Assembly (NCBI GenBank): GCA_049523135.1
Contig: JBEKNE010000001.1
Span: 82,095 to 146,094 of the forward strand
From: Candidatus Microgenomates bacterium
GTDB lineage: Bacteria > Patescibacteriota > Microgenomatia > UBA8517
Reading direction: 5' to 3'
DNA: 64,000 bases
Below, piece after piece: positions 15,232 through 18,519 of this stretch; position 1 is the first letter of the stretch, and every line of letters starts with the position of its first letter. Both the position numbers and the translations under genes were made by a program. The notes beneath the pieces were generated by a model, which saw only the letters and a list, made by a program, of their open reading frames with translations, made no database searches and was not told where the DNA came from.

Positions 15232-15969
15232 ATGAAGAAAACACTAATTGTTGTTTTTTTAATTTCATTGTTTTCAAGTCTTATTTTGTTTTTCCCCAAA
15301 AAAACTCTAGCTCAGGATTGTGGAGAAATAGGACAAGCTTGCTGTAGTCCTGGGTTCCTTTGTAACAAAGGTTCTATTTGCGATATCGCGAATCACACCT
15401 ATTCATGTATTAAATCCAATTTGTCGACAACGTGCGGAACTGAGGGATTACCCTGCTGTGCCGGATCAAAATCATGTGACACCAACAACCTAACTTGTGA
15501 TCCTTTTTATACATGTGTCTCTGCCACATCAACACCGTTTCCATCAGATTGTGGGGAATTTCAGCAAGCCTGTTGTTCGCCAGATTTTACTTGCGACGAG
15601 AACAACGGTCTGACTTGTGATATTGCCAACCACACTTATTCATGTATTAAAACCACCAACAATTCGAGCATTCTCACTACCTGCGGAATTCAAACAGCAA
15701 TTGGTTGCATTCCCATTTCAGATTCGGGGAGTTTGTTATCGTTTATTTTAAAATGGGCAATCGGAATTGGCGGTGGAATTGCGTTCCTCCTAATGCTCTA
15801 CGCAGGATTTATGATCATGACCGCTTCCGGAGATCCTGAACGACTTAAAGCAGGTCAGGAACTTTTAACGTCTGCTATTGCAGGACTCATTCTTTTAATA
15901 TTCTCAATCTTTATACTTAAATTTATTGGAATTGATATACTGGGGTTAGGTAGTTTTGGTTTTCCATAA
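15232..15969 (+). CDS. Cys-rich tandem-domain protein fused to a VirB2/TrbC-like pilin C-terminus
   Basis: Two homologous Cys-rich modules: QDCGEIGQACCSPGFLCNKGSICDIANHTYSCIK and SDCGEFQQACCSPDFTCDENNGLTCDIANHTYSCIK. A C-terminal pilin-like segment reads ...GIGGGIAFLLMLYAGFMIMTASGDPERLKAGQELLTSAIAGLILLIF... Confidence 0.55.
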   Translation: MKKTLIVVFLISLFSSLILFFPKKTLAQDCGEIGQACCSPGFLCNKGSICDIANHTYSCIKSNLSTTCGTEGLPCCAGSKSCDTNNLTCDPFYTCVSATSTPFPSDCGEFQQACCSPDFTCDENNGLTCDIANHTYSCIKTTNNSSILTTCGIQTAIGCIPISDSGSLLSFILKWAIGIGGGIAFLLMLYAGFMIMTASGDPERLKAGQELLTSAIAGLILLIFSIFILKFIGIDILGLGSFGFP

Positions 15970-15974
15970 TAAAC

Positions 15975-16358
15975 ATGCTATCGGATCTTTTTAGTCAAAT
16001 TCAAGCGTCTGCTCTTCCTAATTCTCATTTCGGCGGAAATTCAACAATTGGAGATTTTGTTAAAAACTCGGGAATATTAAATTACGTTTTTGGCGCTGCT
16101 GGAATTGCACTACTTATCTATTTAATTTTAGGGGGCTTTCAGATGATGTTATCGCGCGGAGATCCTAAGGCAATGCAAGGCGCACAAGCAAAAATTACAA
16201 ACGCTTTAATTGGATTTGTGATTATTATTATTGCTTTTTTCATTGTCCAACTCCTTGGACAACTTCTGGGTATCCAAAACACAATATTCGGACAAATTTT
16301 TTCAATCTCTACTAAAAATAATAGTGGCTACCAAAATCCGCCACTTACCCCACAATAA
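15975..16358 (+). CDS. VirB2/TrbC-like pilin paralog 2
   Basis: ...MLSRGDPKAMQGAQAKITNALIGFVIIIIAFFIVQLLG... (2-TM pilin architecture). Confidence 0.55.
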   Translation: MLSDLFSQIQASALPNSHFGGNSTIGDFVKNSGILNYVFGAAGIALLIYLILGGFQMMLSRGDPKAMQGAQAKITNALIGFVIIIIAFFIVQLLGQLLGIQNTIFGQIFSISTKNNSGYQNPPLTPQ

Positions 16359-16404
16359 ATAATGTATATTTGCGGTTTTTCTAAAGTTAAAATACAATAG
16401 CATT

Positions 16405-16740
16405 GTGAACAATTTGGCATTAAGTATAGGTAACACATTCTTCGGGGGTTCAAATACCTTTGGTGGTGGAACTTCAGGAAGTTCATTAAACGGTATCGGC
16501 AGTCTTGTTTCCTTGTTTCTAAATATCGCTTTTGTCGTAGCCAGCATAATTCTTCTTTTCTTCTTTATCCTTGGGGGAATTGGAATGATCATTTCTGCTG
16601 GTCAGGACGATCCTCAAAAAGTGGAGCAATCTAAAAAAACAATTACTTCCGCTATAATCGGCTTTGTTATTGTATTTGTATCCTATTGGATAGTAAAATT
16701 AGTAGCTCAGCTCTTAGGAATATCGAACTTAATTTTTTAA
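16405..16740 (+). CDS. VirB2/TrbC-like pilin paralog 3
   Basis: ...ISAGQDDPQKVEQSKKTITSAIIGFVIVFVSYWIVKLV... Confidence 0.55.
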   Translation: MNNLALSIGNTFFGGSNTFGGGTSGSSLNGIGSLVSLFLNIAFVVASIILLFFFILGGIGMIISAGQDDPQKVEQSKKTITSAIIGFVIVFVSYWIVKLVAQLLGISNLIF

Positions 16741-16741
16741 T

Positions 16742-17104
16742 ATGTTAAATCTTTTGGCACAAGATAATCCATTTGGAACAATCAATGCTCCTACAAGCTC
16801 ACTAAGTAATTCTAGTGATGCCGGTCAAGCAATAGGTAAAATAATCCAATATGCTATTTGGATCTTGATCGTTGGCGCCGGAATTTATGCACTTTTCAAT
16901 TTCATAATTGCCGGTTATGACTTTATGTCCGCAGGAGATGATCCTAAAAAGGTTGCGGGGGCTTGGGCAAAAATCTGGCAAACAGCTCTTGGGCTTGCGG
17001 TTGCAGCCGGCGCTTTGGTTTTGGCAGGAATATTCGGACAATTAATATTTGGTAACGCAACTTATATTCTTAATCCATCAATAACACCATTACAATTACA
17101 ATGA
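16742..17104 (+). CDS. VirB2/TrbC-like pilin paralog 4
   Basis: ...MSAGDDPKKVAGAWAKIWQTALGLAVAAGALVLAGIF... Confidence 0.5.
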   Translation: MLNLLAQDNPFGTINAPTSSLSNSSDAGQAIGKIIQYAIWILIVGAGIYALFNFIIAGYDFMSAGDDPKKVAGAWAKIWQTALGLAVAAGALVLAGIFGQLIFGNATYILNPSITPLQLQ

Positions 17105-17466
17105 ATAAACTCTTGGCAATATCACTAGCTCCAAATGGCAACGGTTTTACTGGTATAGGAACCAGTCCACTTGCAAACCCCGGCGGTAATTCTGTTAGCA
17201 TTTTCTCAAATTTTCTATCTACCATAGTCGGTGTTATGACAATTGTCGCCGTAATTTGGGCTGTTTTTACTATAATCACAGGAGCCATTGCAATTATCGG
17301 TTCCGGTGGAGATAAGCAGGCACTCGAAAGCGCAAGAAAAAGAATAACAACAGGAATTATTGGATTGATAATTGTTATAATCGCGCTTTTTATAGTCGAA
17401 ATTGTAGGTCACATTCTCGGAATTGAAAATATATTGAATATTCAACAGCTTTTAAATTTAAAATGA
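17101..17466 (+). CDS. VirB2/TrbC-like pilin paralog 5
   Basis: ...IGSGGDKQALESARKRITTGIIGLIIVIIALFIVEIV... Confidence 0.55.
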   Translation: MNKLLAISLAPNGNGFTGIGTSPLANPGGNSVSIFSNFLSTIVGVMTIVAVIWAVFTIITGAIAIIGSGGDKQALESARKRITTGIIGLIIVIIALFIVEIVGHILGIENILNIQQLLNLK

Positions 17467-17774
17467 TTACAAACCCTGTTCTTAATCAAACTAATACTAA
17501 CGGTGTAAGTTTTTTACAAAATGCTGTTCCAGCTGCAATCGGCATGGCATTTCTGGCAGGGGCCATAATATTTTTTTTCATGCTAATTTTTGGCGCGATT
17601 AAATGGATTTCGTCGGGTGGAGATAAGCAGGCACTCGAAAGCGCAAGAGGAACAATAACCAGTGCATTAATCGGAGTGTTTATCCTTTTTGCCGTATTTG
17701 CAATAATCCAGCTTATCAATACTTTCTTCGGACTTCATATTTTGAATCTCACAATACCTACCCTAAAACAATGA
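17463..17774 (+). CDS. VirB2/TrbC-like pilin paralog 6
   Basis: ...ISSGGDKQALESARGTITSALIGVFILFAVFAIIQL... It shares an identical 33-nt stretch with paralog 5. Confidence 0.55.
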   Translation: MITNPVLNQTNTNGVSFLQNAVPAAIGMAFLAGAIIFFFMLIFGAIKWISSGGDKQALESARGTITSALIGVFILFAVFAIIQLINTFFGLHILNLTIPTLKQ

Positions 17775-17825
17775 AATTAATACTGACTCTTGACATCAAT
17801 AAGCCAGTAATTCAATAATGTACAT

Positions 17826-18158
17826 ATGCAGAATTTAATTGCACAAACAATCAGTTTAACTCCTGCTCCCAACAGTGGATTTCAAAATTTGGGTGGGATT
17901 ACTGCTCCCGGCATTGTTTCTGCGGCAATCAGACTTGCTGTTGTTGTTGCAGCAATAGTCTTTTTCTTTATTTTGGTAATCGGAGGAATTCGCTGGATTG
18001 CTTCAGGTGGAGACAAAGCTCAAACCGAAGCTGCAAGAAATCAAATTACAGCAGCCCTCGTTGGACTTGTCATAGTTTTTGCCGCTTGGGCAATAGTTGC
18101 CCTTATTAACACATTCTTTAACGTTAACATCTTCTCCCTGGTTATCCCTTCTATTTAA
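17826..18158 (+). CDS. VirB2/TrbC-like pilin paralog 7
   Basis: ...IASGGDKAQTEAARNQITAALVGLVIVFAAWAIVALI... Confidence 0.55.
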   Translation: MQNLIAQTISLTPAPNSGFQNLGGITAPGIVSAAIRLAVVVAAIVFFFILVIGGIRWIASGGDKAQTEAARNQITAALVGLVIVFAAWAIVALINTFFNVNIFSLVIPSI

Positions 18159-18207
18159 TACATTAATACAACTTGCTCAAAGTAGTACCACAGGTTAAAA
18201 TGTTTTT

Positions 18208-18519
18208 GTGGGAAGTTTTATTGTAAAAGCCCAAGGAACAACATCAGGGATCGCCACCATTTCCGATTTGGAAAGTGTTTTTACTAGGGTTGTCAGTTTG
18301 GCTCTCGGACTTGCCGGAATAACACTTTTTATTTTGTTAATTGTCGGCGGATTCAAGTACATTACTTCCGGAGGAGATCCAAAAGCTGTTGAGGGAGCCC
18401 AAAAAACTCTAACATATGCAATTGGAGGCTTAATTGTAATTCTCCTTTCTTATCTAATCCTCGTCCTAATCTCCAAGATAACAGGTGTTGATGTTACCAC
18501 CTTCACAGTTACACAATAA
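18208..18519 (+). CDS. VirB2/TrbC-like pilin paralog 8
   Basis: ...ITSGGDPKAVEGAQKTLTYAIGGLIVILLSYLILVLI... GTG start. Confidence 0.5.
   Translation: MGSFIVKAQGTTSGIATISDLESVFTRVVSLALGLAGITLFILLIVGGFKYITSGGDPKAVEGAQKTLTYAIGGLIVILLSYLILVLISKITGVDVTTFTVTQ

Follow-up and report, generated by a model that had tools for sequence, protein, structure and literature searches.

The eight consecutive pilin genes at positions 15232–18519 of a 64,000-nucleotide stretch of Candidatus Microgenomates DNA (the window, numbered from its first letter) are, as judged from sequence comparison with related genomes, ancient orthogroups conserved in their order and not recently amplified variants. The array is best explained if its genes specify non-redundant subunits of a single heteromeric type IV secretion system (T4SS) filament or wall-spanning conduit, which we regard as probable. 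Patescibacteria represent a large share of the uncultured bacteria, and the members brought into culture grow attached to other bacteria. Growth on the host requires the T4SS and its pilin genes in the only species that has been examined genetically (PMC10633639). Tandem arrays of T4SS pilin genes are already known and have been published for this very bacterial class (PMC12102498), and the window array adds no new kind of system. In the comparison of 43 genomes the pilins act instead as a constant set of eight distinct parts, which argues against the antigenic-variation analogy in the current literature. The fixity and order of the eight orthogroups, the internal promoters, the hypervariable Sec-exported head and the fused forms described below do not appear in the portions of PMC12102498 and PMC10633639 used here.

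Conservation of the array across related loci

The array is composed of eight open reading frames (ORFs) of 103–246 codons on the forward strand, placed head-to-tail with spacings of −4 to 51 nt between adjacent genes. In the alignment all of them share a hydrophobic helix, a loop of the form [S/A/R]-G-[G/D]-D-[P/K]-K/Q...A-x-x-x-I-T-x-A-[L/I]-x-G, with one Asp and one Gly kept in all eight, and a second hydrophobic helix; the hydropathy profile of each protein contains two segments of transmembrane length. All eight match the Pfam family PF18895 (T4SS_pilin) with E-values from 1.8e-10 to 3.3e-5, six of them above the gathering score of 26.6 bits (27.3–41.2 bits). Pilins 4 and 6, at 24.3 and 24.9 bits, were also recovered by a hidden Markov model (HMM) built from the array, and each constitutes a conserved orthogroup inside the family. 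Thus, ORFs, alignment, hydropathy and PF18895 confirm a preliminary description of the DNA, made from its letters alone, which had recognised eight consecutive paralogs of one architecture (two helices and an S-G-G-D-x-K loop). The location upstream of a VirB6/VirB4 module, given in the same description, was borne out as well by a VirB4 ATPase (NF045971, 370.5 bits), a PrgI protein and, more weakly, a VirB6-like protein (prob 0.94). No further PF18895-like ORF was found by the array-built HMM elsewhere in the window. Paralog pairs of the array are 20–50% identical over local alignments (mean 35%), the N-terminal tails, predicted to face outward, being the most divergent regions. The start of pilin 1 is likely the ATG at 15232, although its longest ORF opens at the GTG at 15229. 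Pilin 8 is 100% identical to NCBI ABSC49_00705, from a metagenome-assembled genome named 'Candidatus Microgenomates bacterium'.

Homologs of the 584-aa VirB6-like neighbour were aligned and used to gather 80 species-representative loci with 10-kb flanks, and every ORF of these loci was scanned with the array-built HMM. Among the 39 loci whose upstream flank is uncut, the copy number is eight in 33, nine in 4, ten in 1 and one in 1, and the synteny between the VirB6-like gene and the array is kept in all uncut related loci except L054, the one with a single pilin. Eight copies, initially described as unusual, are therefore the normal state in this lineage, and such arrays have been published (PMC12102498). 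Orthology, tree and promoter comparisons were carried out on the 43 loci with eight copies, which are species-level genomes and contain 344 pilin domains. The best cross-locus BLASTP match stays on the same array position in 94–100% of the 1,806 comparisons made per position (334 of 336 for the window pilins), and in the neighbour-joining tree of the 344 domains, each position appears as a pure clade of 42–43 of the 43 sequences. Orthologs are 51–74% identical across species (74% at position 7, 69% at position 1, 68% at position 4), with a mean of 80% between the window copy of pilin 7 and its orthologs, while paralogs are 32% identical whether taken within or between genomes; each position also displays its own consensus signature. 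Positional orthology and monophyly indicate that the eight-fold split is older than these 43 genomes, one of which is labelled Amesbacteria, and the identity between orthologs points to purifying selection on each copy for its own sequence.

Recent duplication, recombination or gene conversion was considered and rejected, since in a repeat search the DNA similarity between copies was limited to the loop-coding stretch (62–80% identity). Neither long DNA repeats between the pilin copies nor invertible elements in the array were found in this search, and a lineage-specific amplification with copy-number turnover, of the type seen in Bartonella and Anaplasma, was not observed across the sampled loci. 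The proposal that the copies reflect antigenic or functional diversification survives in its second half, a specialisation of the individual copies being plausible; the antigenic half is not supported by eight old orthogroups held in a fixed order and number.

Predicted topology, specialised pilins and fused relatives

Pilins 2–8 consist almost entirely of two transmembrane helices, preceded by tails of 27–44 residues with a high content of G, N, S and T and almost no charge. No signal peptide and no hydrophobic leader ahead of the first helix was detected in these seven proteins by hydropathy and charge. The K and R residues cluster in the inter-helix loop, which under the positive-inside rule predicts for each pilin a membrane hairpin with both termini outward and the short S-G-G-D-x-K loop facing the cytoplasm. 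VirB2-type pilins are extracted from such a hairpin topology and polymerised by a machine of VirB4, VirB6 and VirB3. The AlphaFold2 (AF2) model of pilin 8 (pLDDT 82.7) is a helical hairpin formed by residues 18–53 and 58–92, connected by a loop at 54–57. In a Foldseek search of the PDB it came closest to 8dfu, a subunit of the Aeropyrum pernix conjugation pilus (prob 0.89, TM-scores 0.58/0.69); at E = 2 this match is no more than suggestive.

The relation of the array to the classical pilin families was more distant than the name 'VirB2/TrbC-like', given to it at the outset, implied. VirB2, TraA and TrbC are typically made with a long cleavable N-terminal leader. None of the eight pilins matches PF04956 (TrbC/VirB2) at E ≤ 1, and the NCBIfam TrbC model gave a faint match with pilin 5 only (E 0.017). 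Membership of the classical TrbC/VirB2 family was rejected on the lack of sequence matches to PF04956 and to solved VirB2 or TraA proteins and on the absence of the leader in seven of the eight proteins. The part of the name that stands is that of a T4SS pilin, the profile which matched being PF18895, and by sequence the proteins are best assigned to this 'VirB2-like' family and not to TrbC/VirB2 proper. The suggested inspection of signal-peptidase motifs gave a similarly divided result, with a Sec signal peptide in pilin 1 and none in pilins 2–8. The PDB entries that did match by sequence are designed helical proteins sharing a 'GDPKAVE' loop, and these matches were taken as chance.

A further likeness was found to a family from monoderm bacteria. 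All eight pilins match NF045849, the 'Mbov_0395 family pilin-like conjugal transfer protein' of Mycoplasma integrative and conjugative elements (ICEs), over nearly the full 80-residue model, at 13.7–33.6 bits (E 2e-8 to 0.04), below the family cut-off of 40 bits; pilins 3 and 6 match NF045848 too. By this measure the window pilins would be remote relatives at best, not members. Together with the likeness of the neighbouring VirB4 to the ICE ATPase Mbov_0397, these matches hint that the pilin may have its origin in a branch of monoderm T4SSs and not have been borrowed from diderm systems, a question left undecided in PMC12102498.

Pilin 1 differs from the other members at its N-terminus, where a Sec signal peptide (MKKTLIVVFLISLFSSLILFFPKKTLAQ, ending TLAQ before the Asp that follows the cleavage site) precedes a Cys-rich head of about 130 aa and the pilin domain. 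The 20 Cys of the head are distributed over three C-x6-CC-x5-C-x5-7-C-x5-8-C modules, with two more where it joins the pilin domain. Modules 1 and 3 (15364–15418 and 15601–15655) are 80% identical over 55 nt, which points to a recent internal duplication inside the head. The position-1 pilins of the related loci nearly always possess a signal peptide and a Cys-rich extension, of 78–400 residues with 5–50 Cys. The window head alone has no detectable homolog in a database of 5.8 billion proteins and shows only 25–39% similarity to other heads, confined to the Cys pattern; the pilin domain attached to it is 80–89% identical to its counterparts in 12 related loci. The head is thus hypervariable and fast-evolving, and the visible diversification of the array is located in it. 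The surplus copies of the nine- and ten-copy loci are also head-bearing pilins, placed at the start of the array. Given the N-out topology, the head would be extracellular.

Two elements inside the array (Table 1) distinguish its last two genes. In the predicted sigma-70-like element before pilin 7, 6 nt lie between the −10 hexamer and the ATG. Upstream of position 7 an element of the form TTGACA-N18-xATAAT, matching at least 11/12, is present in 37 of the 43 loci, compared with 0/43 at every other position. In nine loci, of which the window is one, pilin 6 ends upstream of the −35 hexamer and the hexamer is still kept. The −10 hexamer of the promoter-like element before pilin 8 also ends 6 nt before the start codon (GTG) in the window. 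Across loci this element reads TTGCTC-N17-TA[A/G]A[A/C]T and ends roughly 6–10 nt ahead of pilin 8, and the looser pattern TTGNNN-N16-18-TANN[ACT]T precedes position 8 in 35/43 loci versus 4–19/43 at the other positions. Both elements end about 6–14 nt ahead of the start codon across loci, which would yield leaderless or near-leaderless mRNAs. Pilins 7 and 8 thus appear, from these predictions, to have each its own conserved promoter and almost no leader. A strong conserved promoter was not found before pilin 1 (best scores below 10/12 in all 43 loci), and no convincing terminators were seen inside or after the array.

Fused relatives of these pilins were retrieved when the pilin profile was searched against 1.84 billion cluster representatives, giving 86,890 members at E ≤ 1e-3. 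Of the best 150 of these matches, 137 contain 2–17 pilin hairpins per polypeptide, a proportion that is no estimate of frequency as the ranking favours multi-domain proteins. The fused proteins have signal peptides, G/S/T-rich linkers and no start-like junctions, and they look genuine, gene-calling artefacts being not fully excluded. Some of them keep the order of the array, clearly for positions 1 and 2 (P0335 and P0347) and by small score margins for positions 4+5, 5+6 and 6+7, which fits with co-assembly of different hairpins. A motif resembling a signal peptidase I site (AYAQ, AHAQ or AYAD, with the cut after the last residue) occurs in 35 of the 65 linkers between high-scoring units, against 8.9 ± 2.7 in shuffles; the fused proteins may therefore be precursors that are cleaved into single pilins. 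No fusion was present among the 484 pilin ORFs of the 80 related loci. The linker motif is resembled by A-Q motifs at the N-termini of the window pilins, where M-x-N-L-[L/I]-A-Q opens pilins 4 (16742–16762) and 7 (17826–17846) and, in weaker form, pilins 2, 3 and 5, VKAQ occurs near the N-terminus of pilin 8 (18208–18237) and the signal peptide of pilin 1 (15232–15318) has its TLAQ end.

Proposed assembly and competing readings

In the scenario that we favour, the array belongs to the chromosomal T4SS of monoderm type (MPF-FATA-like) of a Patescibacteria bacterium of the Microgenomates/Woesebacteria type. Pilins 7 and 8 would be the best candidates for the bulk subunits, on account of their own conserved promoters with almost no leader and of pilin 7 being the most conserved, and pilins 2–6 might act as low-abundance accessory or initiating subunits. 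Pilin 1, exported by the Sec pathway and bearing the fast-evolving Cys-rich head on its outward N-terminus, would be a candidate host-contact subunit, possibly an adhesin. The comparisons show the family membership, the topology features, the synteny, the positional orthology and the conservation of the promoters, as well as the variability of the head; from these, filament formation, the major and minor roles, the adhesin role and the function of the system are inferred. A more specific form of this scenario can be put forward, tentatively: a heteropolymeric VirB2-type filament of monoderms built from eight obligate, non-interchangeable pilins fixed across the sampled Woesebacteria- and Amesbacteria-type genomes, with pilins 7 and 8 as bulk subunits expressed from their own promoters, the headed Sec pilin as a host-recognition subunit replacing VirB5, and the fused relatives as precursors cut by signal peptidase. 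If true, this would represent a mode of building conjugative-type pili not described before, and it would locate the host-specificity determinant of these epibionts.

Genetic data consistent with such non-redundancy come from Southlakia epibionticum. Table S1 of the transposon-sequencing (Tn-seq) study of Wang et al. (2023, PMC10633639) lists all six PF18895 genes of the T4SS cluster of this species (SEML1_0014–0019) as growth-defective and then essential, with 11–15 insertions each in the input DNA and 0–4 afterwards. Several points weigh against the scenario. Tn-seq essentiality of small operon genes can reflect polar effects. The match of pilin 8 to 8dfu is not significant by its E-value (E = 2), a helical hairpin being a very common shape, and the pilin profile retrieved no solved VirB2 or TraA from all PDB sequences. 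The related loci were found through their VirB6-like neighbour, and lineages with other layouts lie outside the sample. The promoters are predicted from consensus match and conservation, and the −35 hexamer before pilin 7 overlaps the conserved last codons of pilin 6 in most loci, so that its conservation could be partly at the protein level. Finally, no T4SS pilus has been seen in Patescibacteria, for which a review (PMC12857230) mentions only the 'potential to elaborate conjugative pili'.

An alternative would be that the hairpins, together with VirB6 and VirB3, form a short stalk or channel through the membrane and wall of the monoderm cell and no long fibre, a reading which seems to us somewhat doubtful but deserves to be kept in mind. 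T4SSs of Gram-positive type are generally without pili (PMC10633639, PMC12102498), the sub-threshold matches of all eight pilins are to a family of wall-less monoderm Mycoplasma ICEs, and polypeptides with up to 17 fused hairpins are easier to picture as a polytopic membrane assembly, unless they are cleaved. Such cleavage is what the excess of A-x-A motifs in the fused linkers (35/65 versus 8.9 expected) suggests, with release of single hairpins; likewise, the large exported head of pilin 1 would suit an exposed structure better than a buried channel, and the closest among solved structures is that of a pilus subunit, none of these observations being decisive.

It is unlikely that the eight proteins are interchangeable major pilins whose amplification lets the filament surface vary, be it antigenically or in host range. 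This was the view of the preliminary description, and PMC12102498 suggests likewise, by analogy with Bartonella and Anaplasma, that the variety of the arrays might aid adaptation to different hosts. The low identity between the window paralogs, paralleled by that reported in the same study (mean 25%, maximum 54% within arrays), and the divergence of their outward-predicted tails are what such a reading expects. However, the stable copy number, the strict positional orthology with a monophyletic group at each position, the purifying selection implied by the identity of orthologs across species, and the lack of repeats, invertible elements and signs of gene conversion in the repeat search all stand against it, as does, with the caveat on polar effects, the essentiality of all six pilins in S. 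epibionticum, unlike redundant variants (PMC10633639). The idea that these are secreted effectors, or unrelated holin-like membrane proteins merely neighbouring a T4SS, was rejected as very improbable: a preprint on the TM7x transcriptome does mention 'six putative effector genes' in the T4SS region and the pilin array of TM7x once went by the name 'Sec secreted array' (PMC12102498), but all eight proteins belong to PF18895, seven lack a signal peptide and are almost wholly two transmembrane helices, and the array keeps its VirB6-like neighbour in all uncut related loci bar L054. Under the favoured reading of eight non-redundant subunits, the targets for experiments would be the host-contact subunit, the bulk subunits, and whether a T4SS of Gram-positive type builds a pilus.

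Genomic neighbourhood and known systems

The genes around the array are listed in Table 1. The array and the VirB6-like gene stand about 3 kb apart in the related loci (median distance from the last pilin 3075 nt). In the window an exported Cys-rich protein of 847 aa lies between them, whose C-terminal part (SLILGVMYGEGAFNP) might be a candidate wall-hydrolase-like domain. The 584-aa protein has 1925 homologs, from Woesebacteria wherever named. It matches no Pfam or NCBIfam family and its family profile retrieved nothing from the PDB sequences; the best PDB match of its AF2 model (pLDDT 68.6) is TrwI/VirB6 of R388 (7o3v_F, prob 0.94, E 0.07), a weak but consistent indication that it is VirB6-like. 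VirB6 is described as scarce in Microgenomatia (PMC12102498), and the 584-aa family may supply the divergent VirB6 that seemed to be missing there. The CHAP-domain protein is, judging by this domain, a putative cell-wall hydrolase of the system, with a possible role like that of VirB1 or PrgK.

The minimum of the cumulative GC skew near 33 kb and the dnaN and dnaA genes place the T4SS cluster beside the replication origin, and the tmRNA, SmpB and tRNA genes of the window identify the DNA as chromosomal. No coupling protein (VirD4-type) or relaxase was found among the scanned window ORFs of at least 100 aa, a few overlapping ORFs in other frames being outside the scan. This suggests that the system probably serves the epibiotic lifestyle and not conjugation.

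Table 1. Positions of the pilin genes, the predicted promoter elements and the neighbouring genes in the window
Feature	Position	Strand	Description
Pilin 1	15232–15969	+	245 aa from ATG 15232 (246 aa from GTG 15229); PF18895 hairpin at about 171–233
Pilin 2	15975–16358	+	127 aa; PF18895, 34.5 bits; orthogroup position 2
Pilin 3	16405–16740	+	111 aa; PF18895, 41.2 bits
Pilin 4	16742–17104	+	120 aa; PF18895, 24.3 bits, slightly below cut-off; most divergent paralog, yet a strongly conserved orthogroup
Pilin 5	17101–17466	+	121 aa; PF18895, 27.3 bits
Pilin 6	17463–17774	+	103 aa; PF18895-like, 24.9 bits, slightly below cut-off
Promoter before pilin 7	17790–17819	+	Predicted, sigma-70-like, TTGACA-N18-AATAAT, 11/12 match
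Pilin 7	17826–18158	+	110 aa; PF18895; most conserved orthogroup
Element before pilin 8	18173–18201	+	Predicted, promoter-like, TTGCTC-N17-TAAAAT
Pilin 8	18208–18519	+	103 aa; PF18895; start GTG; shortest orthogroup
Cys-rich exported protein	18564–21107	+	847 aa; no Pfam or NCBIfam match
Candidate divergent VirB6	21129–22883	+	584 aa; polytopic membrane protein
923-aa ORF	between the VirB6-like and PrgI genes	−	No Pfam or NCBIfam match
PrgI (VirB3-like)	25780–26856	+	C-terminal CarboxypepD_reg-like domain
TrsD/TraD-like protein	26828–27544	+	Resembles the N-terminal part of VirB4; NF041427 29 bits and NF045975 34 bits, both below cut-offs
VirB4 ATPase	27541–29367	+	CD1110 (monoderm) type; NF045971, 370.5 bits (cut-off 325)
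CHAP-domain protein	29369–31720	+	783 aa; C-terminal CHAP, 23.9 bits, slightly below cut-off of 26
dnaN and dnaA	32363–35054	−	Followed by rnpA and yidC nearby

Other features of the window were observed outside the T4SS cluster. A tandem repeat (ggaaatt-ggaaatt-ggaaatt-agaaatt, 15109–15136) is located in the divergent region between pilin 1 and a SpoIID-like gene on the minus strand; the SpoIID ORF includes it when read at its longest, the true start of that ORF being probably further downstream. A RiPP-like cluster on the minus strand (4923–9513) encodes a YcaO protein (8167–9513), a nitroreductase-family protein (7532–8170) and a radical-SAM/SPASM enzyme (5110–6531), with two small ORFs that could be precursor peptides, one of 195 aa ending SGSGYGCCCETCCS (6932–7519) and a Cys-rich one of 68 aa (4923–5129). 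Near the end of the window (64000), a bAvd-like four-helix-bundle protein is encoded on the minus strand (63008–63355; PF22296, 71.7 bits). Among the members of PF22296 is the accessory protein of diversity-generating retroelements, and no reverse transcriptase was found among the ORFs scanned near this gene.

The closest known systems are the VirB2-like arrays of other Patescibacteria. The survey of Quinonero-Coronel et al. (2025, PMC12102498), which covered 3,035 Patescibacteria genomes with PF18895 among its profiles, reports 441 'VirB2 arrays' of 2–11 pilin genes in 383 assemblies, notably frequent among Microgenomatia and Saccharimonadia, and places T4SS genes of Microgenomatia near dnaA and dnaN. 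The Patescibacteria arrays share with the window the PF18895 family, the tandem layout, the low identity of paralogs, the neighbours (VirB6-like protein, PrgI, VirB4 and wall hydrolase), the location by dnaA/dnaN and the lack of a nearby coupling protein or relaxase. S. epibionticum ML1, for which no recognisable coupling protein or relaxase is reported either, has six pilins compared with eight in the window, and one of them, SEML1_0015, carries an N-terminal extension ahead of its pilin domain (115–180) that may be compared with the head of pilin 1 (PMC10633639). The Mbov_0395 family of Mycoplasma ICEs (NF045849) bears the remote, sub-threshold likeness to all eight window pilins described above. 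In those elements its gene is present as a single copy.

VirB2 of the T pilus, TrbC of RP4 and TraA of the F pilus resemble the window pilins in their small size, their two hydrophobic helices and a short basic loop predicted to be cytoplasmic, and VirB3, VirB4 and VirB6 homologs are encoded alongside. The window set differs from them in leaving PF04956 unmatched, in lacking the long leader in seven of its eight members and in its monoderm host, and neither cyclisation nor a TraF-type peptidase is evidenced for it. Furthermore, the canonical systems use one major pilin and VirB5, whereas the window encodes eight distinct subunits. The sets of major and minor subunits in type IV pili and type II pseudopili offer an analogy, with several non-redundant, order-conserved subunits of which one has a bulky domain. 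A single N-terminal helix and a prepilin peptidase site characterise type IV pilins; their fold and assembly machine are different, and no homology to the window pilins is claimed. Lastly, Bartonella and Anaplasma phagocytophilum likewise have several divergent VirB2 paralogs in tandem beside a T4SS, and these are read, as cited in PMC12102498, as surface variants for immune evasion, whereas the copies of the window correspond one-to-one across 43 genomes.

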